From positions 32,001 to 96,000 of IMG/VR virus record IMGVR_UViG_2884152688_000003: a stretch of DNA of 64,000 nucleotides. The stretch is one strand, 5' to 3'. The translations under genes were made by a program, and so were the position numbers. The first letter of the stretch is position 1. Each line of letters begins with the position of its first letter. Of this stretch, positions 4,499 to 47,453 are shown in pieces. Source of the stretch: a virus (taxonomy: Duplodnaviria; Caudoviricetes). Under the pieces are notes generated by a model. It was not told where the DNA came from, did no database searches, and saw only the letters and a program-made list of their open reading frames with translations.

Positions 4499-4527
4499 TT
4501 GACATAACAGAGTAATTATGGTATAAT
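4499..4527 (+). promoter_or_regulatory. Consensus sigma-A promoter
   Basis: TTGACA-17bp-TATAAT with extended TG. Confidence 0.8.
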
Positions 4528-4609
4528 ATGTATATATCGAAGTTTTTACTTTAATATATGTATCGTGAGAAATCATAATATATAAAATAATTTAATTTAG
4601 GGGGATAAA

Positions 4610-5713
4610 ATAATAGAAACAAAAGATTTAAAGAAAACAATAAAGGATAAGTTAAAAGAATTAATCAGTAAACTTGATTACAATATAAAGAGTTATAATG
4701 AGAGATTAACTTTAATAGAAGAAATACTGGGGATACAAATGAATAATGGAATAGAGTTTCCAGATGAGTTTTGGATAGATTTATTTGAACAAACAATAGA
4801 TCCCATAACCAAAACAGATAATTCAAGTATTAAACTATGCCTAGACCAAAAGGATAAGATTTACTCAAATACAAATGTAGCAATATTCTTAGAAAAGATA
4901 GCAAGTTATTTGATAAATTGTCCTGAGGTAAAGGAAGAAGAGACTTTAACTTATAAAATATATCACAGTAAGGAAATGTTTGATAAAAGTATTAAAGATG
5001 AAAAAGAAGTAAGAAAGTTATCAATGACTACAGAGGATAAATTAACTATGTCTATATTTAAGAAAGAAAGAAACTTTAAGAAAGCTAAAGATGTAGTAAT
5101 TAAACCAAGAGATATAAGACTCTGTAACCAATTAAGAGATTATGATTACTCATTAAATAAACTTAAAGATTTAAATAGAAACTCTAAGGTAATAAGAATA
5201 ATGAGTGAAATTAAGAAAGATATGCTATTAGTATATGATTCATTCTTTAGGCCTATTAGGTTTAAAAGTCCATTAAGAGATGAAGGTGAACCAGATTGGT
5301 CTAAGTTAGATATGATGGATAAAGGTACTATGAAAGAATTAATAAAGTTAAAAAGAACAGATGAAATACACAAAGATATTAACTGTATATTATTAGATGT
5401 TGAATTATTAATAAATAGAACAAACTTAAAAGATAAACATAGAGAAATATTAACATTATATAGAGAAGGTTATAGCAATAAAGAGATTGCAGATAAGCTT
5501 GATACATCAAAACAGAATATAGGTAAATATATAGATAGATGTGTAGAGAACCTTACAGACCAATACCATAGTGAATATGAAGATTGGTACTATCTTAATA
5601 TATCTAAAGGTAAATATCATAGATGTAAAGTATGTGGTGAAGTTAAGTTGGATACTAAATTTTATAAACATACTACAAGGAAGAGAAAGAATACTTGTAA
5701 AGAGTGTATCTAG
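4610..5713 (+). CDS. Phage sigma-factor-like / HTH transcription regulator with C-terminal Zn finger
   Basis: Region-4-like HTH (EGYSNKEIADKLDTSKQNIGKYI) and CxxC...CxxC. The frame is open from ATA 4610 behind an AGGGGG RBS, 43 codons upstream of ATG 4739. Confidence 0.7.
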   Translation: MIETKDLKKTIKDKLKELISKLDYNIKSYNERLTLIEEILGIQMNNGIEFPDEFWIDLFEQTIDPITKTDNSSIKLCLDQKDKIYSNTNVAIFLEKIASYLINCPEVKEEETLTYKIYHSKEMFDKSIKDEKEVRKLSMTTEDKLTMSIFKKERNFKKAKDVVIKPRDIRLCNQLRDYDYSLNKLKDLNRNSKVIRIMSEIKKDMLLVYDSFFRPIRFKSPLRDEGEPDWSKLDMMDKGTMKELIKLKRTDEIHKDINCILLDVELLINRTNLKDKHREILTLYREGYSNKEIADKLDTSKQNIGKYIDRCVENLTDQYHSEYEDWYYLNISKGKYHRCKVCGEVKLDTKFYKHTTRKRKNTCKECI

Positions 5714-5763
5714 TATTATCTTTTATCTATCTTAATCTATTTATCTTTAATGATTTTGACCTT

Positions 5764-5796
5764 GTATTAAAAGTATTAAAAGTATTAAAAGTATTA
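5764..5796. repeat. AT-rich 9-bp tandem repeat (GTATTAAAA x ~3.7), probable origin unwinding element
   Basis: Directly visible, adjacent to the iterons. Confidence 0.75.
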
Positions 5797-5840
5797 GGAG
5801 AGCTAAAAGCAAGTAGTTCCAAAGGTTAGAGGGGTGTAAG

Positions 5841-5924
5841 GGCGACTTTTTGTCACATTTTGGCGACTTTTTGTCACATTTTGGCGACTTCTTATCACAT
5901 TTTGGCGACTTTTTGTCACATTTT
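5841..5924. repeat. Four 21-bp iterons (GGCGACTTTTTGTCACATTTT)
   Basis: Tandem copies at 5841, 5862, 5883 (2 mismatches) and 5904, immediately upstream of the Rep gene. Confidence 0.9.
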
Positions 5925-5961
5925 AGATGTTATTTTACGAAAGGAGTGGTACGTATAAATA

Positions 5962-6600
5962 TTGTTAGTGAAATGTAAAAAAATATTAAATGAACAAAAT
6001 ATATCTATGTTTACTAAAGTGGAAATGAATGTATTTTTTTCATTAATTTATGTGGTTACGGAGAATCCTGAAGTTAATGAAATAGAATTAAAAGCAATTA
6101 AAAAACTATCTAGAGATAGTAAAAATGGTTATAACGATTTAAAAAAACAAATATCTTCAATAAATTCAAAGTTACAGAAAATGACATTCGTAGGGGAAGA
6201 TGGAAAAAAAACTCCGTTTCTATTATTTGAGACTTTACATGTATCCGACAAAGTTTTAGAAGTAAAAATATCCAAGCAGTTTGAGTATTTATTTATTGAT
6301 TTGTTCAATGAAAAAAAATCTATAGCCATATTTGATCTTGAAGAACTTACTATGATAGAAAGTAAATACAGCAAAACTTTATATAGAAAATTAAGTTGTT
6401 TTAAGAGAAGTAAGTGGTTCAAGAAAGAGTTTGATGAATTGGTGACAGAATTAGGATTTAACTCTAAATACAAAAAAAAAGATATAAAGGTAAAATTAAA
6501 AGATGCCATCAAAAAGTTAGATGTATATTTTAGAGATATTTCTATTAGTTATGAGAAAAAAACAATAAGTGGGGAAAATTGTGTAATTAAATGGAAATAA
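5962..6600 (+). CDS. Plasmid-type replication initiator (Rep_3/RepB family)
   Basis: FDLEELTMIESKYSKTLYRKL motif typical of Rep_3 winged-helix initiators, with iterons upstream. Confidence 0.8.
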   Translation: MLVKCKKILNEQNISMFTKVEMNVFFSLIYVVTENPEVNEIELKAIKKLSRDSKNGYNDLKKQISSINSKLQKMTFVGEDGKKTPFLLFETLHVSDKVLEVKISKQFEYLFIDLFNEKKSIAIFDLEELTMIESKYSKTLYRKLSCFKRSKWFKKEFDELVTELGFNSKYKKKDIKVKLKDAIKKLDVYFRDISISYEKKTISGENCVIKWK

Positions 6601-6690
6601 CTGAATATTTTATACAATTGGGAAAAAAGAGGTTTACTTTTCCGGTAGTTAGCATATATATATATAGAGGGGGTAATTAAGTAAATTAAA

Positions 6691-7074
6691 ATGGAAGAAA
6701 ATAAGAGATTATCAAACACAATGTTGACTCTTTACTTAACAGAATTGTTACAAAGAGAATACAATTTAAAATTCAGCGAAAGACAAATGAAAAAAATTCT
6801 GGATGGAATGGAATATGGGATAAAAACTTTAATAGAAGATGGCTATAGTTTTAAGTTATTAGATACCAATTATGAACCATATGTCAAGAAACCAGTTATC
6901 TATAAAGAAATAAGAAGTGGTGAAATTAAAAAGAGTGATGCTCGATTTGACGTTAGAACTTATATGTCTAGAAGTTATAGAAAAGAATTGGGAAAGAAAA
7001 CAAAGCACAAAACCAATGAAGAACCTAGGGTCATAGGCTTATATGAATCTGAAGTTCCGAAAAATTTGAAATAA
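6691..7074 (+). CDS. HU/IHF-like DNA-binding protein (divergent)
   Basis: Helical N-terminus followed by a beta-arm-like segment (KKPVIYKEIRSGEIKK). Position matches HU-like genes of SPbeta-type phages. Confidence 0.45.
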   Translation: MEENKRLSNTMLTLYLTELLQREYNLKFSERQMKKILDGMEYGIKTLIEDGYSFKLLDTNYEPYVKKPVIYKEIRSGEIKKSDARFDVRTYMSRSYRKELGKKTKHKTNEEPRVIGLYESEVPKNLK

Positions 7075-7097
7075 ATAAATATATTTATAAAAAGATA

Positions 7098-7126
7098 TTG
7101 ACATAACAATTAGCTTATGTTATAAT
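7098..7126 (+). promoter_or_regulatory. Consensus sigma-A promoter upstream of the IS and RNA cluster
   Basis: TTGACA-17bp-TATAAT with extended TG. Confidence 0.8.
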
Positions 7127-7318
7127 ATGATTATGTCAAAGAAAGACTTAGCAAACTAGCTAAAAATATAAAGGTGTATTCGCACAGGATTTACTTTTTT
7201 TATTTTTTAACTAATTTGGCAGAAGTCGCCTATCCTCTATAGGTGGATGATGAATGCCTTGTTTTTTTTATTCAAAAAATGTTATAATCAGTCTATATTA
7301 GAAAAGAGTTGATATAAC

Positions 7319-7723
7319 ATGGAATTAGATACAAATAATCATTCAGTATTTCTTCTATATTATCACCTTGTGTTGGTAACTAAATATCGTAGACAGGTGA
7401 TTGATGATGAAATATCTGATTACGCAAAAGCTACTTTTGAAAGAATTTCAGAATCTTATAACATTACTTTAGTTGAGTGGAATCACGATAAAGACCATAT
7501 TCATATTATGTTCAAAGCTCAACCTAAAACAGAAATGACAAAATTCATAAACGCCTACAAGAGTGCTAGTTCACGTTTGATAAAACGGAACTTTCCAAGA
7601 GTTAAACAGTTTCTTTGGAAAGAGATGTTCTGGTCTAAAAGTTTTTGTCTTTTGACAACTGGTGGAGTTCCAATTGATGTGATTAAGAAATACATTCAAA
7701 GTCAAGGAAGTAATCATAAATAG
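7319..7723 (+). CDS. tnpA: IS200-type Y1 HUH transposase
   Basis: YHLVLVTKYRR, HUH motif DHIH, catalytic Tyr in KKYIQSQ. Confidence 0.95.
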   Translation: MELDTNNHSVFLLYYHLVLVTKYRRQVIDDEISDYAKATFERISESYNITLVEWNHDKDHIHIMFKAQPKTEMTKFINAYKSASSRLIKRNFPRVKQFLWKEMFWSKSFCLLTTGGVPIDVIKKYIQSQGSNHK

Positions 7724-7739
7724 AAAGTAGGTGAACCTC

Positions 7740-8882
7740 ATGAAACAATTAAAAGCATATAAATTCAGAATATCTCCAACAGAAGAACAAGAAATATTCT
7801 TCGCTAAGTCTTTTGGTTGTGTTCGTAAGGTCTACAATCTAATGCTTGATGACCGAATGAAATCTTATGAAGAGACTAAGGATGATACATCTAAAAAAAT
7901 GAAATTTCCAACACCTGCAAAATATAAGAAAGAATTTCCTTTCTTGAAAGAAGTAGATAGCCTTGCTTTAGCAAATGCTCAACTAAATCTAGATAAGGCT
8001 TATAGGAACTTCTTTCGAGATAAATCAATTGGATTTCCTCGTTTCAAAAGCAAAAAAAATCCTGTTCAAAGCTACACAACAAATAATCAAAATGGAACAA
8101 TAACATTGGTTGACGGTAAGTTTATTAAGTTGCCTAAATTAAAGTCATTAGTTAGAATTAAACTGCATAGGCAAATTAAAGGAATTATCAAATCAGCAAC
8201 AATATCACGTCTTGCAAGTGGCAAATACTTTGTGTCTATTCTATGCGAAGAAGATATACAAGAATTGCCAAAGACTAACTCTACTATTGGCATCGACTTA
8301 GGAATATCTCACTTTGCTATACTATCTGACGGTCAAAAGATAGATAACCATAAATTTACTTCTAAGATGGAACAAAAACTTAAACGTGAACAACGCAAAC
8401 TATCCAAACGTTGCCTTATGGCTAAAAAGAAAGGCATTAAACTTTCTGATGCTAAAAACTACCAGAAACAAAAAAATAAAGTAGCTAAGCTACACGAAAA
8501 AGTAATGAACCAACGTGAAGATTTTCTGAACAAGTTAAGTACATCTATTGTCAAAAACCACGATACTATTTGTATAGAAGACTTAAATATCAAAGGAATG
8601 TTACGTAACCATAAATTAGCAAAATCTATATCTGATGTATCATGGTCTAGATTTGTAACTAAATTAGAATACAAAGCCAACTGGTACGGAAGAAAAGTTA
8701 TAAAAGTAGATAAATGGTATCCGTCTAGTCAAATTTGTTCTAACTGTGGACACAATGATGGCAAGAAAGAGTTAACCATAAGAGAATGGACTTGCTCTAA
8801 TTGCAACACGAATCATGATAGAGATATAAATGCAAGTATAAATATAAAAACCGAAGGAATTAGGTTACTAGAAATATCGTAG
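7740..8882 (+). CDS. tnpB: RNA-guided endonuclease TnpB
   Basis: AYKFRI N-terminus, RuvC D/E/D (GIDLG, IEDL, DRDINA) and CxxC...CxxC zinc finger. Confidence 0.95.
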
Positions 8883-9070
8883 ATAACATAAAAATCAAAG
8901 ATTTTCGTGTCTAACATATGTGAGAACCATAGGAACTATGGGGATAGCTTGGTAAATAAGAGAAACCTCTGTAAGTAAAGAAATACGCTTACAAGTATGT
9001 TCTGTTCCCAAGAAGCTCCCACTTCTAGCGTTAGCTAAGAGGAGAGTAGTTCACGATGTGGCAAAAAGCT
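8883..9070 (+). ncRNA. Putative TnpB omega-RNA (right-end scaffold plus flanking guide)
   Basis: Structured right end between the tnpB stop and TCAC. By established TnpB biology the guide is the flank starting at 9055. The 5' limit is uncertain. Confidence 0.6.
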
Positions 9071-9112
9071 TAAATGCTTTCAAAGGGAGGGGCGTGCTCC
9101 TTCCCCAGATTT

Positions 9113-9188
9113 GGATTAGTAGCTCAGTTGGTAGAGCATTCGGCTGTTAACCGAAGGGTCACAGGTTCGAGTCCTGTCTTTTCCGCCA
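9113..9188 (+). tRNA. tRNA-Asn (GTT)
   Basis: 76-nt cloverleaf: TAGCTCAGTTGGTAGAGC D arm, TTCGG-CTGTTAA-CCGAA anticodon arm, GGTTCGAGTCC T arm, encoded CCA. Two U-U mismatches in the acceptor stem. Confidence 0.92.
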
Positions 9189-9196
9189 ACAAGTTG

Positions 9197-9323
9197 AATT
9201 TTCCACCAAGTGAATTTAAATGTATCTATGATATTTAGACGCCCTCCTTTCATCATACGTTTTTATTCTTAGTCTATTACAAAGGGTATCGTAGATATGT
9301 TTAAGTTCACTTATGGTGAATTT
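9197..9323 (+). ncRNA. Long hairpin RNA with anti-Shine-Dalgarno loop
   Basis: CACCAAGTGAATTTAAATGTATCTATGATATT pairs with GGTATCGTAGATATGTTTAAGTTCACTTATGGTG using several G-U pairs. The loop contains CCCTCCTTTC. Confidence 0.5.
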
Positions 9324-24440: not shown

Positions 24441-24754
24441 ATGGTCTTTGGATCGATTGAAGAGTGTGAAGCTTATATAAAGAGTTGTATGACACAAACA
24501 ACCCCAGTTATGGCACAAAAAACTCAAGAAGAAGGAAAGAACATAATATCCGGACAGGTTGGTGGAATAACAGGAAGTTTGGCAAATTCAGTGTTTATAT
24601 TGGGAACATCAGCAAATTCAATGGAGGTAGGAATAGAGGATAGAGGTGGTGGAAATGATTATTCATGGACATCACAGGTTTATAGAACTCATTTCTTTCC
24701 GATGTACGGATTAGAGAAAGGCCACACATGGAATAGAGGTGCCACAACAATTAT
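24441..24754 (+). CDS. Tail-module protein (tail completion/HK97 gp10-like), exon 1
   Basis: Joins in frame to 26910-26994 after removal of IStron 1, giving 132 aa (...RGATTI-M-ITWESW...). Confidence 0.8.
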
Positions 24755-24814
24755 AGGTTTTTCAAGCGAGAAAACCCACGATTTTAATCGTGTGGATGAA
24801 AGCTTGTCAAATAC

Positions 24815-25210
24815 ACTGTAAGCATATAGAGAAATCTGTATGTAGTGAATACATAAAACTCATGTATTCCAATTAAGAAACTGAATTGCTGGAAATTCGT
24901 AAAGCTAACTTAACTACAACGCAAAGATAATACAAAACTTAAACGTGAATGTGGCGAGAGCAGAAAAAATAAGTTAGATGGCATAAGGTTAAACCCTAAG
25001 TGCTTTAAAATTGAAAATCAGCATCCAAGCCTAGAAATAGGAAGGTTCAACGACTATTCCTCTTGAGGGAAGTACATCACAAGCCATTGGTGATGGAAGT
25101 GGTTTCGCCTTAGCACGTAATGGTGAAGGATAAGATATAGTCTGTGCTTGCACGAAAGTGTAAGAAGTTCATAAGAGAACTGTATAGATAGTAGCGAATC
25201 TATATGAACA
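24815..25210 (+). ncRNA. Group I intron ribozyme core of IStron 1
   Basis: P AATTGCTGGAAA, Q AATCAGCA, R GTTCAACGACTA and S AAGATATAGTCT in the correct order. Confidence 0.92.
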
Positions 25211-25299
25211 AACTTCACACAAAAAAAAGAAAGTATAATAGTTTTAATATTGTGTATAAAACTATTGATTTCGTACACTAAATAGCATATAATAAAATT

Positions 25300-25701
25300 A
25301 TGAATAATGAATACAGAGACTCAAAAACAACTGTTTCGTTAATCAATTATCATTTTGTTTTTTGTCCAAGATATCGAAGGAAAATATTTGAAGATTCCAA
25401 AGTAGATATTAGATTTAAATCAGTCATTCAAGAAATATGTATTGAGAATGATTGGGATATTATTGCAATAGAGACAGATAAAGAGCATTGCCATTTATTC
25501 ATAAATGTACAACCTATATATTCTCCTTCTGAAATAATGAAGATAATAAAAGGTATTACATCACGAAAATTAAGGCAAGAATTTGAACATTTAAGCAAAA
25601 TGCCAAGTGTTTGGACAAGGTCATTTTTTGTTTCAACTGCTGGTGATGTATCTAGTAAAATAATTAAAAGATATGTTGAAAATCAAAGAACAAGATACTG
25701 A
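25300..25701 (+). CDS. tnpA: IS200-type Y1 HUH transposase
   Basis: YHFVFCPRYRR, HUH motif EHCH, catalytic Tyr in KRYVENQ. Confidence 0.95.
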   Translation: MNNEYRDSKTTVSLINYHFVFCPRYRRKIFEDSKVDIRFKSVIQEICIENDWDIIAIETDKEHCHLFINVQPIYSPSEIMKIIKGITSRKLRQEFEHLSKMPSVWTRSFFVSTAGDVSSKIIKRYVENQRTRY

Positions 25702-25725
25702 TTATACGTTAAGGAGGTGACAGAA

Positions 25726-26844
25726 ATGAAAAAGGCACATAAGATACGTATTTACCCAAATACTAAACAACAGATACAATTTCAAAAAACATTTGGATGC
25801 GTAAGATTTTACTGGAATTTTATTTTAAACCAAACTCAAACAAATTATAAAATGAAACAAGAAGATGAAATGTATTTAGAAGACAAGACAACATATGCAA
25901 TTCTTAAAAAACAAGAAGAATATTCATGGTTAAAAGAAGTTGAAGCTCAACCATTAAGCCAAGTGACTATGGATTTAAGAAAAGCATACAAAAATACATT
26001 TAAATCTAAGTTTGGGCTCCCTAAATTCAAGAGTAAAAAATACTCTAAAAAATCTTATAGGACAGCAGCTGGAATGAAGGTGAATGAAAACTACTGTTAT
26101 ATATCTAGAGTTGGGTGGGTAAAAATGGCGGAGAAGTTACGATTTAAAGGAAAATTAATGAATGTAACAATCAGTCAATCTAAATCTGGAAAATACTTTG
26201 CAGCATTCTTAGTAGAAACTGAAAATGTTGAACTAGAACCAGTCGAAAATAAAATTGGCTTAGATTTAGGTCTTTCTCATTTCTGTGTAGCTTCCACAGG
26301 AGAAAAAATAGATAACAAAAAATTCTATCATTCTCTTGAAAAGCGACTAATAATTGAACAAAGAAAACTTTCAAAACGTTTAGAGATAGCCAAAAAACAT
26401 AATCGTAAATTAGATGATTGTAAAAACTATCAAAAACAAAAAAAGAAAGTTGCTTTAATACATGAAAAGATATTCAATCAAAGAAATAATTTTTTACATC
26501 AAATTTCTTCAAGAATAACTGATGAAAACCAAGTCATTTGTATAGAAGATTTAAACGTAAAAAACATGATTAAAGATCATAAATTAGCGAAATCAATAGC
26601 CGATGTATCGTGGAGTGAATTCGTAAGACAATTAGAGTACAAGTCTAAATGGAAAGGAAGAAAACTTGTTAAGGTAGATAGATTCTTCCCTAGTTCTCAA
26701 ATTTGTTCTAAATGTGGACACAATGATGGCAAGAAAGAGTTAACCATAAGAGAATGGACTTGTTCTAATTGCAACACGAATCACGATAGAGATATCAATG
26801 CGAGCATAAATATTAAAACCGAAGGACTTTCGGGGTTAGCTTAG
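25726..26844 (+). CDS. tnpB: RNA-guided endonuclease TnpB
   Basis: GLDLG, IEDL and DRDINA catalytic motifs plus zinc finger. AAGGAGG RBS before ATG 25726. Confidence 0.95.
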
Positions 26845-26909
26845 TAAATTTACTATCAATAGATGGTATTACCTAAGAACCCCACGATTTTAATCGTGTG
26901 GAGTGTCAG

Positions 26910-26994
26910 GATTACATGGGAATCATGGGCTTCTGGAAACTTAGATAAGATATTCTTAGAAACAATGAGTGGTCTAGGAGTACCTATAGGATAA
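26910..26994 (+). CDS. Tail-module protein, exon 2
   Basis: G-ATT ACA TGG ... GGA TAA continues the exon 1 frame and stops just before the tape measure RBS. Confidence 0.8.
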
Positions 26995-27009: not shown

Positions 27010-29169
27010 TTGGCTGAGTTTAGAATAAAAAGTACATTAGATCTCAGTACAGATGAAGCAAAGAGCAAAATGAAAGCTCTTGAAAATGAAAAGATTAAAG
27101 CTAAATTAGAACTAGATGCCGAAAGTAGTAAGAAAGCCCTTAACAGTTTAGATAAAGCGTCAAAGCAATCTCAACAGAATAGGGTCAAAGATGCAAAGAA
27201 GGCAGAAAATGAATTAGCTGGGATAGATAGAAAAAAGCTAAATGAATATAAAAGATTAGGGCAGGAAAAAGCTTCTTTAAGTAATAAGTTTGCTAAAGCT
27301 GAAAGCGATAATGCTAGAAAGAATTTAGATAAAAATATTAGAGATAGACAACGACAGATGTCTGGACTATACAAACAAATGTCTAGTGAACAGCAAAAAA
27401 TAGCAAAACAGATGGACACTCAAATGTTCGGTGCTAAATCAGGCAATGGCTTACTGAAGGCATTTGGACGAATAGATAAAGATGCTTTAAAGATAAAAAA
27501 TACTATCAGAAGTCTAGATGGGGATATAACTAAAACCTTAGGGAATAAGCTATCTAAACAAATGGATGGATTTTATAAAGGATTAGATAAAAAACCTGTC
27601 AATAACGCTACGTATGAAAACGCTAGAAGGACGATGAATAGTTATCAACAAAGTGCTAAAGCTTTGAAAGAAATTTCCTCTCTAGAAAAATCATATGGAA
27701 GTAGACAAACGGCTGTAAACAATAGACTGGGTGGTTTAAGTAATCTAGTAACGCAAAAAGCTGGGGCTGAACTAAATAAAAATTTAAGCCAATCTTTTTC
27801 ACAAATTAGAGGAAAAGATATAACTTCAACAGCTAGTAAAATGAAAGTTTTTGGAACTGAATTAAACAGGACAGCTACAGCAAGTAAACAATTACAAGGA
27901 TTAGATAAGACAATAAATAGATTGTCTGGATTAGAAAGTGGTTTAAAACCTAAAACTATTAATGGTCTTAGACAAGGGATAGTCGATTTATCTAAATCAC
28001 CTTCATTAGGAACAGCAAGTTTTGATTCCGAATTAAAAAAAGTAAATACGCAAATGACAGTAGCGAGCCGATATCAAGGCCGAATGGCAAAACTTAAAGA
28101 TGATTTTAAGATGTCCATGTTCGGAACCTCAATGGGATATTTGGCTGGCTCTTTTTTACGTTCTCAAGTAACTGGAGCAATCCAAACTTTTAAAGATTTA
28201 GATGCTTCAATGACAGATATAAAGAAGGTAGCAAATCCTAGAGATGTAGCGACAGAATCTCAAACAAAAGCTATTAGAAAACAAGCTATCCAAATAGCGA
28301 AAGATGTTGGGATGGCTTCATCTGATGTCCAATCATCAATAGCTACAGCATTACAATCTGGTATGGGCGGTATGAAAGAGTCTATGGCAGTTGCAAGAAA
28401 ATCTATGATATTAGCTAACGTTGGTGATATGGATAAAGTTGAGGCAACAAAAGCTGTCAATACCATAGTTAAATCTTTCAACTTAGACCCTTTAGGGAAA
28501 CAAAGAGTTAACGTAAAGGGAATGTCAAAAGAAACAACACAATTAGCTAATGCAATGGACTTGCTTAACTATGCAGGTAATAATTATGCTATATCTTCAG
28601 CAGGTGTAGCCGAGGCATTACAGCGTGGTGGTGGAGTTATGAAAGCATATGGAATGAACTTAGCCGATTCTGTTGCAATGATTACAGCCACAAATGAACC
28701 AATACAGAATCCAGAAAAAGTTGGTAATGGTTTAAAATCTATTGCTATTAATATGGCTGGTATTACAACCAGTGCCAAAGATGGGACACTCCATGCGAAT
28801 AAAACAGCTAAGGCACTTCAAGAAATTGCTGGCGTTGATATATATAAAGATAAGGCAAAAGGATCTCTTAAATCCCAAGTTGAACTTTTAGATGAAGTTC
28901 AGAAAAAATGGGGTGGATTAAACGATGCTCAAAGAGCCGGTCTATCTGAGTCTATAGCAGGTAAACATAGAGCGGATATATTCCAAGCTTTAATGGGGAA
29001 TTACGAAACATTTAAGAAACTTCGTAATGAGTTTAGCCAAGGAGACCACTTTGGTTCAGCTGAAGCCGAAAACGAAAAATATGTAAACTCATTAGCTGGT
29101 AAGACAAACAAGCTAAAAGAGACCATGACTTCCATAGGAACTGGTCTTATAAATGGGAAGGCTGTTTAT
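27010..29169 (+). CDS. Tape measure protein, exon 1
   Basis: TP901-type core (DLDASMTDIKKV, NYAGNNYAIS, VGNGLKSI), ending at ...GKAVY immediately before IStron 2. Confidence 0.92.
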
Positions 29170-29239
29170 TAGGAACGTAGTGATATAAACGAGAATCCTC
29201 GTGATTTTAATCATGAGATGAATCGTAAAATAGATACGT

Positions 29240-29630
29240 AAATAGTAAGCATATAGAGAAATCTGTATGTAGAGGTGAGAGAAATTCATCCAATACTACT
29301 TGAATTGCTGGAAACCCCTAAAGCTAGTAAAACTACAACATAGAGATGAAATATACTCAAGTGTGAATGTTGCGAAAGCAGAAAAAAATTACTAGATAAC
29401 ATAAGGTTAAATCCTAAGTGTTCTACAATAATGGGCAATCAGCAGGTAAGCTCCGAATAGGAGAAACTTCAACGACTATTCCTCTTGAGGGAAGTACACA
29501 CAAGCGTGTGGAAGTGGGTAGACCTTAACACGTAATGGTGAAGGATAAGATATAGTCTGTGCTTGCACGAAAGTGTAAGAAGTTCATAAGAGAACTGTAT
29601 AGATAGTAGCGAATCTATATGAACGAGACC
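29240..29630 (+). ncRNA. Group I intron ribozyme core of IStron 2
   Basis: P AATTGCTGGAAA, Q AATCAGCAG, R TTCAACGACTA, S AAGATATAGTCT. Confidence 0.92.
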
Positions 29631-29742
29631 TCAAAAATGATAAAGTACAAGGTTCAAGGCATTAGTCCAGAAAACTTTTACAAAAATATGGGCTTATTCA
29701 GTAAAATGCGGTACAATTGCCTTATAGAAAAGAGGTGAGAAA

Positions 29743-30993
29743 ATGTATTTAACTGTAAAGCAACAAGTAAAACAATTATCTAAGGAAGACTATAAAAATA
29801 TAAGAGAACTATCTCATGTAGCTAAAAACTTAGCAAATGAAGCTATATATAATATTCGTCAGTATTATTTTCAAGAAGGAGAATATTTGAACTACGAAAA
29901 AAATTATGTATTACTAAAAGATAGTGAAAACTATAAAAAACTAAATTCTAATATGGCACAACAAATATTAAAAGAAGTAGATGGTTCTTTTAAGTCCTTT
30001 TTCAGTCTTATTAAATTAGCTAAGAAAGGAAAGTATTCATTTAGAAATATTAAATTGCCAAAATATCTTCCAAAAGATGGATTTACGACACTTATTATAG
30101 GATTTGTTAGATTAAAGGGAAATCTTTTAACTATACCATATTCTAATCAATTTAAAAAAGAACATTCAACTGTTACTATAAAAATCCCACAAATTCTTTT
30201 AGATAAAAAGATAAAGGAGATAAGAATTATACCTAAAGCTAAAGCTAGGTTCTTTGAGATTCAATATACTTATGAAGTTGAGAAAGAACAAAGAAATTTA
30301 GACAAAAACAAAGCACTAGCAATAGATTTAGGAATTAATAATTTAGCTACTTGTGTGGTATCAACAGGTGAATCCTTCATAGTTGATGGGAGAAGGTTAA
30401 AATCTATAAATCAAGGATATAATAAGCAAAATGCAATATTACAAAGCATTAAAGATAATCAAAAATATGGGAAAAGACCTACAAATAGACAATATAGAAT
30501 TGCTGAAAAAAGAAATAATAAAGTCAATGATTATATGTCTAAAACAGCAAGGATAATAATTAATTATTGCCTTAAAAATAATATTGGAAAAATAGTTTGT
30601 GGGTATAATGAAACATTTCAAAGAAACAGTAAACTTGGCAGAATAAACAATCAAAACTTTACAAATATACCATTTGGTAAACTAAGAGAAAAGTTGGAGT
30701 ATCTATGTGAATTATATGGTATAGAGTTTAAAAAACAAGAAGAAAGTTATACTTCTAAAGCAAGTTTCTTTGATAATGATGAAATCCCAACATATAACAA
30801 TGATAATCCAAAAGAATATGTATTCTCTGGCAAAAGAGTAAAAAGAGGATTGTATAAAACAAAAAAAGGATTAATCTTAAATGCAGATGTAAATGGAGCG
30901 TTAAACATATTAAAGAAAAGTAACGTTGTACCCTTAGAAGGGTTATACACTAGAGGCGAACTGGACACGCCAATACGTATCAAAGTAGTTTAA
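29743..30993 (+). CDS. tnpB: RNA-guided endonuclease TnpB, IS1341-like type without Cys zinc finger
   Basis: AIDLGINN, QEESYTSK and NADVNGA motifs. VCGYN replaces the usual IEDL. Confidence 0.92.
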   Translation: MYLTVKQQVKQLSKEDYKNIRELSHVAKNLANEAIYNIRQYYFQEGEYLNYEKNYVLLKDSENYKKLNSNMAQQILKEVDGSFKSFFSLIKLAKKGKYSFRNIKLPKYLPKDGFTTLIIGFVRLKGNLLTIPYSNQFKKEHSTVTIKIPQILLDKKIKEIRIIPKAKARFFEIQYTYEVEKEQRNLDKNKALAIDLGINNLATCVVSTGESFIVDGRRLKSINQGYNKQNAILQSIKDNQKYGKRPTNRQYRIAEKRNNKVNDYMSKTARIIINYCLKNNIGKIVCGYNETFQRNSKLGRINNQNFTNIPFGKLREKLEYLCELYGIEFKKQEESYTSKASFFDNDEIPTYNNDNPKEYVFSGKRVKRGLYKTKKGLILNADVNGALNILKKSNVVPLEGLYTRGELDTPIRIKVV

Positions 30994-31064
30994 GCTATGG
31001 AGAACGTAAATAGGTTTAATTAATAAACCTTAGAACCCTGTGATTTTAATCATAGGAGGTTCAG

Positions 31065-34000
31065 GGTGGGTTAGATGCTCTTAATGCTTTTGCTGGAGGT
31101 TTAGATAAATTAGTAGGTTTTGCAGAAAAATATAATCTTCAACTACCTGTTATGGCATCAGGGCTAGGGATGTTAAAAAGTTCATTTAATGGGTTTAAGA
31201 CACCTATAAAAACGTGGGAAGAATTACTTGGGAACGATACTCCTAAGAAACATTCTAAAGCTACAAACAAACCGAAAATAACAGCAGATTCTTTCTCTAA
31301 ACCTAGAGATATAAAAGAACAAACAAATGCAGTAAATACATTGACTAAAGCTAATGATAAAAATACTCAATCTATAAGATCTAATGTCAAGGCAAGTGAA
31401 AGAACACCAGAACAAGCAAAAGCTGTTAGAAAAGAATTAGCATCTCAATTTAAGACTGTTGATTCATTAGGTAAAGCAAAAGAGAAAGATTTAGATATAA
31501 CTAAAAAAGGGATTTCAGCTAATATTAAGGCAGCCGAAAGTGCTAAACAACACAGAAAAGGGATATCTGGACAAGTCCAAGAACTTAAGTCTTTAAATAA
31601 AGTTAGTTCACAATCGTCCAAAATAGGTATAGGAGATAAAATCAGTGGAGTAACAAAAGGAATAGGTGGGGTAGCTAAAAATCTATTATCTGGTGTTGGA
31701 GGAATGTTAGCAACAGGTGCTTTATATGGTGGAGCTACTTTAGCTATATCTAAAGGATTAGAATATGGGTATAAAGGATACCAAAAGTTAACTAATGGTG
31801 TGAACATGTCTAGGCAAGCCCACATAGATAGAAGAAATGCCTTAGTAGGTGAGAACAAAGCTATTTCTTCAAATATAAACTTTTTACAAAACAATAAAAA
31901 AGAATATGATTCTTTAAGAAATAAACAAAAGCAGTTATCAAACACGCCATATGAGAATATGTCAGAATCGCAAAAGGCTGATATGGACAAATTAAAGGCA
32001 TATAATGAAAAAATTGCCGATATGTTCCCTAATATGGTTAAAGGTTATGATAAAGATGGAAACCCAATTGTGTCCATGAGTGCTAACGCAGATGGTCTGA
32101 TTAAAAGACTAAAAGTGGCACAAGAGTCAAAAGAAAGATTAATAAAACAAGAAAATCAAAGCATAGCAGACAAGAACTTAACTGAAATGACTAGGGGCGA
32201 GTCTATAGGTGATAGCATAATCGGTCGCATAAACAATAAAAACAAAAGCGTTTCAGATTATTACAAAAATCTAGCAAAACAAAGCATGAAAGATTATGCT
32301 TTTACAGATATGTCTAAGTTTTTACCAAAAAACAAAACACACAGCGATGCTTTGTTAGGTGATGATTCTTGGAAAAAAAGACAGGCAAAATGGAAAGAGG
32401 GCTACAATAGTTACAAAAAAGAAGTAGACAAAACCTATGGGGAACTAGCTAATGACATAGCTAAATATGACAAAGCTAACGCCCATAATGCATCAGTAGG
32501 GCAACAAAGCTTACTCGATTCTGGGAGATTTAAAAACTTAAAAAATTCTGCAAAAGAAGCAATCTCCGAAATGGGCTCTATGCTTACATGGGGTAAAATA
32601 AGCACGACAGATGGTGTAAGCTTTTTAAATAAATTAGGAGAAAATGCCGACCCGTCAAAAATACAAAATTGGACAAAACAATTAAATAAATTAAACGAAG
32701 CGTATAAGATGGATAAAGATAGGCAAACTTATCAGGCTGGCATAAAGAGCTTGGCTGATGAAATGGCTAAATCTACAAACGGAAGAGCAAAAGACTATAT
32801 CAAAATGCTTGAAGATGTTGATAGGGGATACGCTAATTTAGAAGAAAAAAGAACCGCAGATTATATGAAGAAGAAAGGTACTAAGTTTAGTGACTTAATG
32901 GAAGGTGGATCTAAAGGATCTTATGCTGACAAAGTTCAACAAGAAATAAGGGACATAATGTCAGCTGAACAACTTCTTATGAATGCAAGAACAACCGCCC
33001 AAAAGAAAAATGCTTTAAGTGAAATTGCTTCATATGATGGTTTAGGTTCTGGCGTTCAAAATTGGGCAAAAGCACTAAGTAATCAAAATGGTATTTCAGA
33101 TGCTAGTATGTCCGCTTTCTCTAAGGTGCTAGGAGCGATAGAGAATTATGACCCTAAAAATAAAAATGCCGCAAAAGACCTAAGTAATATAAAGAAAGCA
33201 CTTAATACTGGTGATATAAAAAATGGAATGAGTATCGCTGACGTACTCTCTCTCACTAAGGACGAATTAGAAGCGATAAGGAATATTGACCCTAATGGAA
33301 ATGCCGGTAATATATTTGAAAAAATGTTAACGGGTGGAGAACAGCTTAAAAATAGCTTGAAAAATGTTCAAGATTTTTATTCTAAAGGTGATAATAAGAT
33401 TGAACTAGAGGCTGAGGTTGCATTAAAGATAGCGGATGCTAACTTAAATACAAAGGAACTTGAAGGTCTAGAAAAAGCTGTCCAAAAAATAGAAGATAGT
33501 AAAAAGAATATGTTTCGAGGTGAAGGAGCAAAATATTTTTCAGGAACAAATGGGGATGTGAATAAGGCATATGAGAATATGTCTAAGACTGATGAGGGTG
33601 TTAAGTTTGCTATCCGCTCTGGTGCAAGTGAAGAAGTTAATAAGTATCGTGAGGGGGTTTCACGTTTAAGCGATAGCTATAACCAACTTAATAGTGAAAT
33701 GAAAAAAAGCATAGATTCTTTAAGTGGAAAGGAATTTAGTTCATATTTAGATACTTTTTCTAAACTTGACGATAAAATGAAATCGTTTGTAAAGAATAAT
33801 AATATAGTTTCAGAAAGTGGTATCAAGGCTGCAAGTGGTCTTTATGATATTGGTAAAAGTACCGGTCTTTCAGATATTCAATCTGAAACAATGGTAAAAG
33901 TAGTGATAAGTACAGTGGGGGAAGAAGGGGCGTCTAGAGTTAAATCATATTTAGACAGTTTGCCAGCTGAAAAAAGAGTAAATGTAACAGCACAGCTAAG

Positions 34001-37000
34001 TGGTGAAAATGGTGAAGGATTCGCACAAGGGTATGACGCTTTAATGCAACATTTCAATGGTGACACTAAACTTGTCCAAAAAGTAGCTTTTGAATTAGAA
34101 AATCAAGGACAAGGGGATCTTATTTCACAACTGAGACCGGACAATTTAAAGGAAACTTTAAAGGTAAAAGCTGAGATAGATATAGATAATATGGATGGTT
34201 TTTCGGGAAAAGAACTTCCTCCAAAAAAACAAAGAGTAGAGATTGAAGAAAGCGAAACAAGTGGTTCAAAAGAATTACCACCAAAGAAACAGAAGGTTAC
34301 ACCCGAAATTGCAACAGACGCTTTAAATGGTGGATTTGCAGGACTAAACGCTCACTTGCCACCTATTAAACAAAAGGTAGAAATTGAACAACCAGCACCA
34401 CCAGCTCCAATTGAGGCTGCACCATACATATTCCAAAAACCAGTAATTCCTCAACCAGACCCACCTCAAGTCGGGCCTATAGCGGCACCACAAGTTGAAA
34501 CGCCAGTTACACCTGAACCAACTCTGCCGGCAATGCCAGCTTTACCGGCGCCACAAATGCAGGCACCTACAATGCCAGTACCAATTATGCCAGTCTTACC
34601 TGTGTTCCCCGCTCCGATAGTAGGAACACCAATCATTCCAAAACCTACATTACCTAGTATGGGGACAATACCTGCACCAAAAATAGGTATGCCAACTGTG
34701 CCTAAACCATCTTTACCAAAGATGGATACTATAGCTGCACCAAAGGTTAATACACCTAAGGTTCCAGCACCAACAATGCCTAAAGTCGAACCAATAAAAA
34801 TAAGTATTCCTTCGGTAAAAGTCCCAGATGTAAAAGGGCAATTAGCTAAGATACCTAAAAGCACAACGGCTACAGTTAGGGTAATAGACAATGCATCGGG
34901 GCCGGCAAGAGCAGCTGCGGGTGCTGTTAGATCATTCCCTACTGGAACAAGAGTAGCGACATTAATTACAAAATATGTAACTCAAGGTTCACCAGGTGGT
35001 GGTGGAGGGAAAGGTGGAGGAAAGTCTCTTGATATTAAAAGAGATGAAATAGACTCTAAATTAGAAAAACTTAAAAAGTTAAAGAACTCTAATTATTTCA
35101 ATCTTAAAGATCTTTCCATCTTTAGAAAAAAGAATACTCAACTTAATCCTCTAGCAACAGCACCAGTAATGGGAGCAGTAGCAACAAGTGATGGTTCTAT
35201 GTCTACACCAATTGGTGGTTATATAGGTGGAACAGCTTCACCTATGGATGAAGACATCGTGTCTTTAGTTAATGAATTCAAGAATAGAACTCTCAAAGGA
35301 TTTGACTATAAAGGAATTACAGCTTTAGATAGACTGAGTTATTCCTTAAAGGAAATACAATTTGGATTAAAAGAAGATATTAATCTTCTTCATGAAATGG
35401 AAAGAGCAGTTAATAGAGTAAATAATTCTATTAAAAGAATAGACTTAAATATGCAAAGAGCTCGTGGCTCTGAAAAAGTGTCTATGCTTTTCCTTCAGAA
35501 CGACCAAATAAGAGAATCAATAAGACGTTCTCAAGCACATCGAGCGGCATTAGTAGTAGAAAGAGATGCATATAGAAATATGTTGAGGACTGAAGGGTTC
35601 AAATTTACACCAGACGGAACTCTGACAGCAAACTATTACGCTCAAATGGCTAAATATAAAGAGCGTGATTTAGCTATCGAAAAAGAATTAGAGAAGTTAA
35701 AAGATGGCAAAGGCGCTGATAGCAAGAGAAAGAAACTTGAAGAAGAAAAGAAAGAAATTGAAAGAAAAAGAAAAACACTTGATGAATACGAGAAAACAGT
35801 AGATAAAATTGTTGATGTGGATTATGGAATTAAAGAACATGAAGTGAAGATAGATAATAATGTTGATGAGGTTGAAAAATTAAGGATTTCTGCATGGAAA
35901 GAAAATTATGAGGCCGCAACAAAAATTATGGATTCTGCTATAAAAGCAATAAATAATTCACTAGATATATATTCTATTAAGTTTAAATATGCTTTTGGTA
36001 TGGATAGATTAAATATCTTAGACGCACAAACATCCAAATATAGAGAGATGAATACAGTTATCGAAAGTAATATTAATACCTTAAATAACTTAAAATCAAA
36101 TCTACAAGGACGTTTAGAAAAACATGGGTTTACTTTTAATGGAGATAACATCTCAAATTATCAGACACACATGGCACAGCTTAAAGATACTTCCACTCTA
36201 TATGAAGATATTAAAAGTTTAGCATCTCAATATTTCGACATTGTTGAAAGCAAAATTCCAGATTATAATAAGAAAATGGAAGAAATGAACCAAAAGGTTA
36301 AAGACAATGCGAAACAAAAGCTTGAAGACACTAAAACGATAGAAGATAAAATTACTAGCATGTTAAAGAAACAGGCTGATGAAAGAATAAAAGCTATCGA
36401 GAAGGAAAGTAAAGCTAGAGAAGATGCTATAAAGAAAAAGAAAGATGAATATAATGAGGCTAGAAAAGAAGCTGATTATCAAGATGATTACCAAAAGAAA
36501 TTAAAGGAAATTGAAAAACTTGAGAAAAAGCGTGATATATATACAAAAGATACTAGCCAAAAAGGGCAAAAAGAACTTCAAAAAATAAATGAAGAACTAG
36601 AAAAGAAAGTAGAAGAACTTCAGAAAAGCGTTGAAAAACACGTGGATGATAAAGTAAATAAGATATATGATGATGAGTCTAAAAGATTAGCTGATGAATT
36701 GAAAGAACTTAAAGAAAAAAGAGATGAGGAATATACTGACGCTGAATTATTGAAAAAAGCTCAAGAGGCTATACAATCGGGGCAATTTACTGATTGGGAT
36801 GGTAATGTGAAAGATCTTCAAACAGCGTTGATAGATTATATGAATGAGTTTGAAGGCGGATTATCAGCAACAGGAGCTTTAATTCAAGCAGAACTAATCG
36901 CCAAATTAAAGGTGGCTAATGATACAATAGCAAGTTTTAAGGAAAATCTCGACATACTTGGAGTAGGTGATTATAATTTAGGTGGTTACATACAGCATTC

Positions 37001-37175
37001 TAAATATAATGAGTTAGAAGATAGAAGAAAAGAATCTACCAACAACATTACCTATAACAAGTCTTTAGTAGAAATCCAAGGCAATGTAGATACTGGAACA
37101 TATGAGAAGATACTTGCTGAAGTTCAAAAATATATAAAACAGCACGAAAGAGATTTAAGAAGCAATATAAGATAA
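31065..37175 (+). CDS. Tape measure protein, exon 2
   Basis: GGT GGG TTA GAT... is open and in frame with ATG 31152. The spliced product is 720+29+2007 = 2756 aa. Confidence 0.9.
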   Translation, partial: GGLDALNAFAGGLDKLVGFAEKYNLQLPVMASGLGMLKSSFNGFKTPIKTWEELLGNDTPKKHSKATNKPKITADSFSKPRDIKEQTNAVNTLTKANDKNTQSIRSNVKASERTPEQAKAVRKELASQFKTVDSLGKAKEKDLDITKKGISANIKAAESAKQHRKGISGQVQELKSLNKVSSQSSKIGIGDKISGVTKGIGGVAKNLLSGVGGMLATGALYGGATLAISKGLEYGYKGYQKLTNGVNMSRQAHIDRRNALVGENKAISSNINFLQNNKKEYDSLRNKQKQLSNTPYENMSESQKADMDKLKAYNEKIADMFPNMVKGYDKDGNPIVSMSANADGLIKRLKVAQESKERLIKQENQSIADKNLTEMTRGESIGDSIIGRINNKNKSVSDYYKNLAKQSMKDYAFTDMSKFLPKNKTHSDALLGDDSWKKRQAKWKEGYNSYKKEVDKTYGELANDIAKYDKANAHNASVGQQSLLDSGRFKNLKNSAKEAISEMGSMLTWGKISTTDGVSFLNKLGENADPSKIQNWTKQLNKLNEAYKMDKDRQTYQAGIKSLADEMAKSTNGRAKDYIKMLEDVDRGYANLEEKRTADYMKKKGTKFSDLMEGGSKGSYADKVQQEIRDIMSAEQLLMNARTTAQKKNALSEIASYDGLGSGVQNWAKALSNQNGISDASMSAFSKVLGAIENYDPKNKNAAKDLSNIKKALNTGDIKNGMSIADVLSLTKDELEAIRNIDPNGNAGNIFEKMLTGGEQLKNSLKNVQDFYSKGDNKIELEAEVALKIADANLNTKELEGLEKAVQKIEDSKKNMFRGEGAKYFSGTNGDVNKAYENMSKTDEGVKFAIRSGASEEVNKYREGVSRLSDSYNQLNSEMKKSIDSLSGKEFSSYLDTFSKLDDKMKSFVKNNNIVSESGIKAASGLYDIGKSTGLSDIQSETMVKVVISTVGEEGASRVKSYLDSLPAEKRVNVTAQLSGENGEGFAQGYDALMQHFNGDTKLVQKVAFELENQGQGDLISQLRPDNLKETLKVKAEIDIDNMDGFSGKELPPKKQRVEIEESETSGSKELPPKKQKVTPEIATDALNGGFAGLNAHLPPIKQKVEIEQPAPPAPIEAAPYIFQKPVIPQPDPPQVGPIAAPQVETPVTPEPTLPAMPALPAPQMQAPTMPVPIMPVLPVFPAPIVGTPIIPKPTLPSMGTIPAPKIGMPTVPKPSLPKMDTIAAPKVNTPKVPAPTMPKVEPIKISIPSVKVPDVKGQLAKIPKSTTATVRVIDNASGPARAAAGAVRSFPTGTRVATLITKYVTQGSPGGGGGKGGGKSLDIKRDEIDSKLEKLKKLKNSNYFNLKDLSIFRKKNTQLNPLATAPVMGAVATSDGSMSTPIGGYIGGTASPMDEDIVSLVNEFKNRTLKGFDYKGITALDRLSYSLKEIQFGLKEDINLLHEMERAVNRVNNSIKRIDLNMQRARGSEKVSMLFLQNDQIRESIRRSQAHRAALVVERDAYRNMLRTEGFKFTPDGTLTANYYAQMAKYKERDLAIEKELEKLKDGKGADSKRKKLEEEKKEIERKRKTLDEYEKTVDKIVDVDYGIKEHEVKIDNNVDEVEKLRISAWKENYEAATKIMDSAIKAINNSLDIYSIKFKYAFGMDRLNILDAQTSKYREMNTVIESNINTLNNLKSNLQGRLEKHGFTFNGDNISNYQTHMAQLKDTSTLYEDIKSLASQYFDIVESKIPDYNKKMEEMNQKVKDNAKQKLEDTKTIEDKITSMLKKQADERIKAIEKESKAREDAIKKKKDEYNEARKEADYQDDYQKKLKEIEKLEKKRDIYTKDTSQKGQKELQKINEELEKKVEELQKSVEKHVDDKVNKIYDDESKRLADELKELKEKRDEEYTDAELLKKAQEAIQSGQFTDWDGNVKDLQTALIDYMNEFEGGLSATGALIQAELIAKLKVANDTIASFKENLDILGVGDYNLGGYIQHSKYNELEDRRKESTNNITYNKSLVEIQGNVDTGTYEKILAEVQKYIKQHERDLRSNIR

Positions 37176-46870: not shown

Positions 46871-47167
46871 TTGAGTGAACAAGAGGTTTACTTCATAATA
46901 TTAAAGATAGTTACAGTAGCAATTCCAATAATAATAGGAATCGTAACAATAACAGAAAAACTCACAAAACCAATAAATCAATTAGATAAAACTATTTCTA
47001 ATCTTAATGCAACGATATCAAGCCTTCAAGAGAGTAATAAGGTTCAAGATAAAAGGTTGGATAGACATGGGCGTGAAATAGACGAAACAAAACATAAGAT
47101 TATAGAACATAATACTAGAATTGGGAATGTAGAGAAAGATATAGAAGAATTGAAAGGTGGTAGATAA
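46871..47167 (+). CDS. Holin-associated membrane protein (XhlA-like)
   Basis: N-terminal TM helix plus coiled coil, in the lysis cassette. Confidence 0.55.
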   Translation: MSEQEVYFIILKIVTVAIPIIIGIVTITEKLTKPINQLDKTISNLNATISSLQESNKVQDKRLDRHGREIDETKHKIIEHNTRIGNVEKDIEELKGGR

Positions 47168-47168
47168 T

Positions 47169-47453
47169 ATGATAAATTTTACTGATTATATAAATGTAAC
47201 AACATTGGTGTTTTGTTTAGCATTGGGATATGCTTTAAAAAATTGGGTGACTAAATATAACAACAACTTTGTACCTATTGGATTAGCTCTAATAGGTGCT
47301 GTAGCATGCTGTTTTACAGTAGGTGAAATCAATATTGAGGTAATTACAGCTGGAATGATAAGTGGTTTAATAAGTACAGGGCTACATCAAACTTTTACAA
47401 GATTCATTGAAGGGATATCAGAAGTTGCGGAAAACAAAAGAGGTGATATTTAA
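47169..47453 (+). CDS. Holin
   Basis: Three hydrophobic segments and the GLISTGLHQ motif, adjacent to the endolysin. Confidence 0.85.
   Translation: MINFTDYINVTTLVFCLALGYALKNWVTKYNNNFVPIGLALIGAVACCFTVGEINIEVITAGMISGLISTGLHQTFTRFIEGISEVAENKRGDI

Follow-up and report, generated by a model that had tools for sequence, protein, structure and literature searches.

CdISt1 of Clostridioides difficile, reportedly described by Braun et al. in 2000, is an IStron, that is, an element in which a group I intron is joined to an insertion sequence (IS). Such elements are also known from Fusobacteria, Enterococcus, Negativicutes and two phages of C. botulinum, and according to PMC4227781 those of group A carry a clear signature: insertion after TTGAT, ATTAT or TTTAT without target duplication, a 3' end in TCAG, a U.G in helix P1 that is flanked by pairs, a short stem of 6-10 bp, balanced in composition, enclosing the open reading frames (ORFs), and an IS200/IS605 module (ORF A and/or ORF B) after helix P9.2. 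We analysed a stretch of 64,000 nucleotides (nt) of viral DNA (the window; positions 32,001-96,000 of IMGVR_UViG_2884152688_000003; all coordinates below are window-based) that contains an element of this kind, IStron 1. With a probability of around 0.87, 24755-26909 is a complete group A IStron, with the ribozyme as its left part, and its spliced exons would give a tail protein of 132 amino acids (aa). All sequence-level characteristics of group A are found, i.e. an intron at the 5' side, IS genes after P9.2, the ATTAT target, the TCAG end, matching hairpins at the two ends, the predicted U.G and an enclosing stem of 9 bp, which supports the original prediction, made from the bare sequence, that this is an IStron.

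IStrons, including phage-borne ones, are already well described, and IStron 1 adds a complete example of that kind. Like CdISt1, it begins with an IA2-type intron, carries its IS200/IS605 genes downstream of P9.2, is inserted after a T-rich pentanucleotide, ends in TCAG and has hairpins at its ends and a U.G in P1. It differs from CdISt1 in the combination of target and ribozyme guide (ATTAT/GUAAG here, TTGAT/GUCAG there), in its host, which is of another genus, and in its site, a phage tail gene. Intron cores from genus g3, with TTGAT targets as in CdISt1, are 78-79% identical to IStron 1 over 392 nt. The ribozyme, tnpA, tnpB and both ends are intact in this one IS605-type IStron, whereas the best-studied copies are reported to be without a full-length tnpA; according to PMC10690162 none of the eight copies of C. 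difficile strain 630 has one.

Three other known systems share part of this organization. CbISt3 and CbISt4 (group B) are likewise IStrons on large phages, c-st and D-1873 of C. botulinum, and their intron core is homologous to that of IStron 1 (69.6% over ~325 nt; 61.9 bits with Rfam model RF00028 in locus L007), but they belong to the IS607 family (serine TnpA), have targets ending in GG and a 3' end in CGG, and carry G and not U at the 5' splice site. The IA2 introns of Twort and the Staphylococcus phage K-like phages (RF00028) have the core in common (blastn identities of 70-79% over ~170-210 nt, in many phages) and also share P7.1/P7.2 and the extended P9, as described for IA2. They contain homing endonuclease genes or nothing, without a transposon, and their P1 loops lack a transposase hairpin. 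Together with D-1873, where the match is annotated 'Group I catalytic intron', and c-st, these are among the annotated or experimentally known phage introns to which blastn ties the IStron 1 core. Finally, IS608 and ISDra2 resemble IStron 1 in their homologous TnpA and TnpB and their subterminal hairpins, in a target that lies 5' of the left end and in the absence of target duplication. They have no ribozyme, and their insertion into a gene is therefore not repaired at the RNA level.

The split tail gene

The original prediction had joined 24754 to 26910, giving an ORF of 132 aa that stops just before the tape measure gene, and the arithmetic holds. The 314 nt of 24441-24754 (ending ACA ATT AT) and the 85 nt of 26910-26994 (starting G ATT ACA) add up to 399 nt, i.e. 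132 codons and a stop that ends at 26994, and 15 nt lie between this stop and the start of the tape measure ORF at 27010. The parts of the interrupted gene and of the element are the following.

24441-24754, plus strand: exon 1 of the 132-aa tail-module gene (104 codons and the first 2 nt of the junction codon), ending in the ATTAT target
24755-26909, plus strand: IStron 1, whole element, 2155 nt; the transposon ends are the intron splice sites
24751-24821, plus strand: P1, formed by exon UUAU and intron nt 1-2 (24751-24756) with CU and GUAA (24816-24821)
24775-24795, plus strand: left-end subterminal hairpin, 20 nt inside the left end, present in the fold
24818-25164, plus strand: group I intron core, P2-P9 (RF00028)
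25165-25211, plus strand: P9.1 and P9.2 hairpins (helices 17-18 of the consensus fold), followed by the GAACAA motif (25206-25211)
25212-25220, plus strand: 5' arm of the long-range stem, ACUUCACAC, directly 3' of GAACAA, closing off the ORF region
25300-25701, plus strand: tnpA, Y1 HUH transposase, 133 aa, full length (Pfam Y1_Tnp 1e-37, 121/121 profile positions)
25717-26844, plus strand: tnpB, RNA-guided nuclease by homology; ORF from GTG 25717 (Pfam HTH_OrfB_IS605, OrfB_IS605, Cas12f1-like_TNB)
26881-26901, plus strand: right-end subterminal hairpin, 8 nt inside the right end, direct repeat D1
26896-26909, plus strand: 3' arm of the long-range stem (26896-26904, GUGUGGAGU), then GUCAG, the last base of which is the terminal G (26909); here lie the 3' splice site and the cleavage site of the right end
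26910-26994, plus strand: exon 2 (third position of the junction Met codon, then 27 codons and stop)

Exon 1 (104 aa) matches positions 1-105 of the 140 positions of profile phrog_11057 (E 2.4e-22) and exon 2 (27 aa) matches positions 116-139 of the same profile (E 0.0024). The 10-position gap between the two matches is a stretch of variable length, of which the short form is found here and in several homologs. Exon 1 is 55% identical to the uninterrupted homolog P0002, and when P0002 was used to search 1.84 billion representatives (E<=0.001), 12 proteins were obtained. Ten of these were 127-143 aa long, nine of them matching query residues 1-138 or 1-139 and one (P0012) covering residues 1-115. 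The search also returned a 1111-aa protein with a partial match and the window's own truncated product of 126 aa (P0001; query residues 1-100). A truncated gene call had been predicted for this place, and the 126-aa read-through ORF is indeed the only entry for the gene in the protein database; the tape measure gene is on record as two ORFs.

Alignment of homologs across the junction had been set in advance as the check on which the reading could fail. Uninterrupted homologs of 127-147 aa run across it without a gap. In an alignment of four sequences (the joined window protein, P0002, P0003 and gp16 of phiCD211) the junction is gapless and the Met that results from AT/G (the slash marks the junction) is present in all four, and in an alignment of 12 homologs (A4, from which P0001 and the 1111-aa P0011 were omitted) the I-M pair at the junction is at least 90% conserved, with a nearly invariant Met. 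The C-terminal motif of exon 2, ending in LGVPIG, agrees with the homologs as well. An IMG/VR contig (L039) shows the same gene order, with genes of 269, 259, 141 and 139 aa followed by the tape measure gene; its 139-aa gene is uninterrupted, and the homologous site reads ATCAT/G, without a TTAT target. The empty site, represented by the last part of exon 1 as an exact pattern of 25 nt, was not found in viral or metagenome contigs.

The unspliced product of 126 aa would end with 22 intron-derived residues and, judging from the homolog model described below, would be without the C-terminal helix. The read-through stop (TAA, 24819-24821) sits inside the ribozyme guide GUAA (part of 24816-24821), and ribosomes that enter the intron would therefore cover P1.

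The label 'tail-module' that the gene had been given is reasonable, considering that the gene immediately precedes the tape measure gene, in a gene order that is conserved, and that the predicted fold of its homolog is closest to a chain of a solved siphophage neck/tail-completion assembly. The AlphaFold model of P0002 has a pLDDT of 77.7, and residues 111-139, which form the C-terminal helix, are above 90. In VIA-align the model matched 9mu2_P with Z 8.5 (root mean square deviation 3.0; 105 of 109 residues; runner-up Z 6.1), a chain that belongs to the SaPI1 neck/tail-completion/tape-measure structure. Comparison with BFVD gave the names HK97 gp10 family and putative tail component at weak E values (5.5e-3 to 0.3). 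Foldseek of the model against the PDB gave nothing at E<=0.001, no Pfam family matched the split gene, and its profile gave just a chance match among the PDB sequences. By predicted fold and position upstream of the tape measure gene, the product is likely a protein of the neck or tail-completion type.

Ribozyme, splice sites and transposon module

RF00028 was found at 24818-25164 in a 501-nt scan (63.3 bits, cut-off 50; E 8.2e-16; model positions 1-253 of 253), and a search of the 2.1-Mb genome with this model gave exactly two matches, one in IStron 1 and one (69.5 bits) in a second element, IStron 2, in the tape measure gene. The model was missed in default-filter Rfam scans, both of the 64-kb window at the gathering threshold and of 2.5 kb at E<=10. 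Since scans of ~500 nt put both introns above the curated cut-off, the blanks of the larger scans were filter losses. Default filtering in Rfam is thus one reason why, in practice, introns are overlooked in AT-rich phage DNA, and reports of such elements from phage genomes are probably too few. Of the 301 sampled genomes of the order, 41 contain intron homologs, this one included, but none were found in any of the 13 other sampled genomes of the same genus.

To the fold, 24877-24883 and 25100-25106 contribute P3, 25147-25164 contribute P9, and GACUA (25052-25056) and UAGUC (25138-25142) contribute P7, which is invariant in all 26 aligned homologs. These represent 26 of 36 loci, the omitted ones being one duplicate, seven partial matches, a locus with the hairpin only (L003) and a protein locus (L004). 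From this alignment RNAalifold recovered P3, P4, P5, the P5 extension, P6, P7.1, P7.2, P9, P9.1 and P9.2; P8, which lies in a variable region, was for that reason not recovered. After P7 had been included as a pseudoknot, the consensus fold has 83 pairs in 18 helices, and 98.4% of the cells are paired, against 82.6% in shuffles and 28-40% when the partners were slid by 1-3 columns. Two-sided changes occur at 50 pairs, which was equalled in 0 of 500 shuffles, and at four out of four outer pairs of P3. As the structure was derived from the same, related sequences, these controls overstate the significance somewhat, although the margin is still large. IStron 1 retains 81 of the 83 consensus pairs and IStron 2 retains 77, with alignment gaps accounting for three of its six misses. 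P7.1, P7.2, P9, P9.1 and P9.2 are supported by covariation, and the ribozyme is putatively of the IA2 type. A motif of the GAACAA/GAACGA type, as found after P9.2, marks the start of the IS module in all IStrons described (PMC4227781).

The original prediction held that the 5' exon ends in U and the insert in G, and that these same points are the IS605 target and right end. Base 24754 is a T and base 26909 a G, with flanks ATTAT/ and TCAG/, in agreement with both statements. P1 is predicted in the minimum free energy (MFE) fold of a construct without the ORFs, with the guide strand directly 5' of P2 and a U.G wobble (24754:24818) at the 5' splice site, flanked by three pairs on the exon side and two on the intron side. 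The guide is GUAAG in all four elements with an xTTAT target (IStron 1, IStron 2, L005 and L015) and GUCAG in all seven with a TTGAT target (L006 and L008-L013). Guide and target thus covary in 11 of 11 elements, as a compensatory change from G:C to U:A at exon position -3, and the link is direct: GUCAG becomes GUAAG where TTGAT becomes xTTAT. The first two intron bases likewise change together with the bases that they pair with (AG:CU, UA:UA, GA:UU). In the P1 loop, an extension stem encloses the left-end hairpin, and this stem too shows covariation, being CAAGC/GCUUG here, GCGGGC/GCCCGC in L005 and UAGCUAC/GUAGCUA in genus g3. At the other side of the core, ACUUCACAC (25212-25220) pairs with GUGUGGAGU (26896-26904) over 9 bp in the MFE fold, a closing stem that IStron 2 (GACCUC/GAGGUU) and L005 also form, although the sequences of the arms differ.

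The transposon ends are marked by the same positions. An element in OR847180 that is 77% identical matches window positions 24751-26910 and no further, and the 3' flank of IStron 1, GATTAC, does not repeat the target. A 25-nt direct repeat with an imperfect hairpin (24772-24796 and 26878-26902) is identical at 24 of 25 positions; by analogy with IS608 and ISDra2 the two subterminal hairpins are putative recognition elements of TnpA. Both enzymes had been predicted to be intact, which is borne out by Pfam matches, for TnpA over the full profile, and by end-to-end alignment with solved homologs. TnpA aligns over residues 5-131 with IS608 TnpA (2a6m; E 4.9e-31), with H-C-H opposite H-I-H and a Y-x-E-N-Q motif common to both; we take the residues of the H-x-H and Tyr motifs to be catalytic. 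For tnpB, the start is likely ATG 25726, with AAGGAGG upstream at 25711-25717. Residues 5-371 of TnpB align with ISDra2 TnpB (8h1j; E 1.1e-70), and the three RuvC motifs (G-x-D-L-G, I-E-D-L-N and H-D-R-D-x-N-A), whose residues are presumably catalytic, are kept together with two C-x-x-C pairs. At the RNA level, the scaffold of the TnpB guide RNA is expected to have the right-end hairpin as its last stem. A scan of 26600-26960 gave no match to any Rfam family; the motif GGGG(U/A)UAGCUU(A/G)GUAAAU is common to IStron 1 and to an intron-less IS, where it lies at 8940-8960.

Proposed mechanism and competing explanations

Extrapolating from IS608 and ISDra2, TnpA would recognise the subterminal hairpins at both ends, cut after ATTAT and TCAG and carry the element, in single-stranded form, to xTTAT sites. 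The phage late transcript would run through IStron 1, within which no terminator-like site was found on the plus strand. In this transcript the guide GUAA together with CU would pair with exon UUAU and the first two intron bases, giving P1 with its U.G wobble, while the 9-bp stem would loop out tnpA and tnpB and bring the terminal G beside the core. Two transesterifications would then join exon 1 to exon 2, yielding the 132-aa tail-module protein. Alternatively, the 3' region of the RNA would fold as the TnpB guide-RNA scaffold, with, by analogy, the first bases of exon 2 as the guide, and TnpB would cut empty sites consisting of ATTAT plus exon 2, upon which the element could be copied back after its excision (Zedaveinyte 2023). 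Six bases belong both to the right-end hairpin (26881-26901) and to the closing stem, in its 3' arm (26896-26904), and because of them the two fates would exclude each other. The published conflict between intron and guide RNA in the IS607-type IStron of C. botulinum (Zedaveinyte 2023) should apply here too, and splicing and guide-RNA formation should thus compete in IStron 1. IStron 1 could be a natural and self-contained model in which one sequence serves transposition, splicing and RNA-guided cleavage. As siblings occupy two neighbouring tail genes, virion production should depend on splicing, which would give an easy phenotypic read-out. A further idea is that the two IStrons, placed in adjacent genes of one late operon (the putative tail-completion gene and the tape measure gene), are more than passengers which the phage tolerates, that RNA fate and TnpB level act as a built-in throttle or timer of tail assembly and that the phage carries complete IStrons between genera. 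Each transcript would choose between splicing and guide RNA, and the spliced share would therefore set the amount of tail protein; the 96-nt stretch that is identical in both introns, which elsewhere share 50-77% identity (see below), would then reflect ongoing exchange between IStron copies. We consider this unlikely.

Several points weigh against reading 24755-26909 as a complete and active IStron. While its anatomy, conserved fold, guide-target match, intact enzymes and restored reading frame are borne out by the sequences, splicing, guide-RNA processing and transposition would follow by analogy with the IStron family (PMC4227781, PMC10690162 and PMC13521648). The intact exons could also reflect a very recent insertion and not selection for splicing. 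P1 consists of just four exon pairs and two to four intron pairs, exon position -5 (A) stands opposite a G in IStron 1, and the 5' boundaries of the comparison elements were placed by the published rule and not individually verified. A P10 pairing with exon 2 was sought by eye in both IStrons, and no convincing complementarity was seen; 3' flanks of IStrons are reported as variable (PMC4227781). In addition, the single-sequence fold of the guide-RNA scaffold is no better than that of shuffles (z -1.56).

One could argue that IStron 1 is an IStron by descent that splices poorly or not at all, that both tail genes are knocked out and that the phage is a defective remnant. This would agree with splicing being extrapolated from the family, with the non-standard or gapped consensus pairs (two in IStron 1 and six in IStron 2) and with the presence of the intron in one of 14 sampled genomes of the genus, which fits a recent arrival. 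Nevertheless, such a dead insertion is improbable, given that IStron 1 retains 81 of 83 pairs, the invariant P7, the target-matched P1 guide, its terminal G and its long-range stem, that the exons around both elements are open and conserved, including the 2756-aa tape measure frame, and that the structural module is otherwise without obvious decay. Less probable still is an ordinary group I intron that was later struck in its P9 region by an independent IS200/IS605 element and that would have boundaries different from those of the transposon. The intron family does occur without IS genes (L012 has the same core), and the IS modules differ between IStrons (the TnpBs are 24% identical), yet the P1 loop holds the left-end hairpin, 20 nt downstream of the 5' splice site, and a second copy is present at the 3' splice site, so that the entire ribozyme is part of the transposon. 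Moreover, both boundaries are the same in the homologous element, which sits in an LPXTG-protein gene unrelated to the tail gene, and the uninterrupted homologs that were inspected (four aligned and one syntenic contig) are intron-free at this site. That the in-frame join is fortuitous and 26910-26994 lies outside the gene is hardly credible: exon 2 is just 27 codons long and its family match is weak when taken alone (E 0.0024), but exon 1 and exon 2 hit one and the same profile, with exon 2 at the end where it should be, the LGVPIG motif agrees with the homologs, and the C-terminal helix is modelled with confidence in the homolog (pLDDT >90 for residues 111-139).

Sibling element, relatives and genomic context

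IStron 1 is complete and has a sibling beside it, in neighbouring tail genes of a phiCD211-like phage, which makes it notable. No report of IStrons in phiCD211-like phages or in phage tape measure genes was found in the papers searched, although earlier copies in phage tail genes may be listed in the insertion-site table of the 2014 survey; on introns, a paper on phiCD211 mentions group II ClosTron introns only. The sibling lies as follows.

29170-31064, plus strand: IStron 2, 1895 nt, inserted after TTTAT and ending in TCAG (RF00028, 69.5 bits, at 29245-29579)

Its gene content is restricted to a tnpB of 416 aa (29743-30993) without the C-x-x-C motifs. As there is no tnpA, IStron 2 is probably non-autonomous, and its TnpB is 24% identical to that of IStron 1. 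The tape measure exons, 27010-29169 and 31065-37175, join into an ORF of 2756 aa. In phage LIBA2945 the tape measure homologue (annotated 'hypothetical protein'; 59% identity to the tape measure query) can be aligned with this ORF across the junction without gaps. The ORFs that flank IStron 1 and IStron 2 are stop-free in both cases. Between the two introns there is a perfect identity of 96 nt (25114-25209 and 29529-29624) that spans the 3' strand of P7, P9, P9.1 and P9.2. Outside this run the two IStrons are 47-77% identical and their IS modules are unrelated; the sequences suggest recent recombination or gene conversion between the two copies.

A third IS200/IS605 element is present at 7319-8882, with a tnpA of 134 aa and a tnpB of 383 aa, and with ends near 7100-7300 and 8883-9060. 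No group I intron was found upstream of the tnpA at 7319 (6550-7350 scanned). The TnpBs of this element and of IStron 1 have an overall identity of 52%, but ~38 of the last 42 aligned residues are identical, the DNA being nearly identical there. The near-identical 3' ends of the tnpB genes may represent an exchange of the region in which the guide-RNA scaffold starts.

The nearest relative found is the unannotated element L005 (OR847180, 2380-4515), with 77% identity over the whole element, the same order of intron, tnpA and tnpB, an xTTAT target, a GUAAG guide and a TCAG end. It differs in the gene that it interrupts, the 3' exon of which encodes an LPXTG-type surface protein, and in the P1 extension stem, which is still paired. 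The record is labelled 'Listeria phage LM 4-11-1' and flagged UNVERIFIED_ORG, and because of the LPXTG-anchored surface protein encoded by the 3' exon the DNA is probably bacterial and not from a phage. Another unannotated IStron (L006; TTGAT target, 369-aa tnpB) lies at ~2950-4850 of CP067352, the related large Clostridioides phage ES-S-0173-01. It interrupts an ORF of 262 aa, the stop of which is formed by the first three bases of the intron. Locus L012 (contig C1 of genome G174) combines a TTGAT target and a GUCAG guide with a short P1 loop; considering this short loop and the absence of a left-end transposase hairpin, it represents a free-standing intron. The ribozyme family thus occurs with and without IS ends within one genus.

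On the plus strand, 22.2-37.2 kb of the window form a siphophage tail module. The order is a 269-aa virion protein (phrog_2729), a 258-aa DUF6558 tail protein, an ORF of 150 aa and the 126-aa ORF at 24441, followed by tnpA, tnpB, a short ORF, the N-terminus of the tape measure protein (720 aa, starting at 27010), tnpB and the C-terminus of the tape measure protein (2007 aa). The nearest phage relatives of the structural proteins are large phiCD211-like Clostridioides phages, and no obvious decay was seen in the remainder of the structural module. The outer parts of the window, 1-9200 and 47000-64000, resemble a large phage or phage-plasmid. They encode ArdA, the N-terminal domain of a Rep3-type initiator, an amidase endolysin and two tyrosine recombinases, and further a subtilase, RuvC, an ATP-dependent DNA ligase, a C5 methylase and NrdD/NrdG. 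A tRNA is located at 9113-9185.

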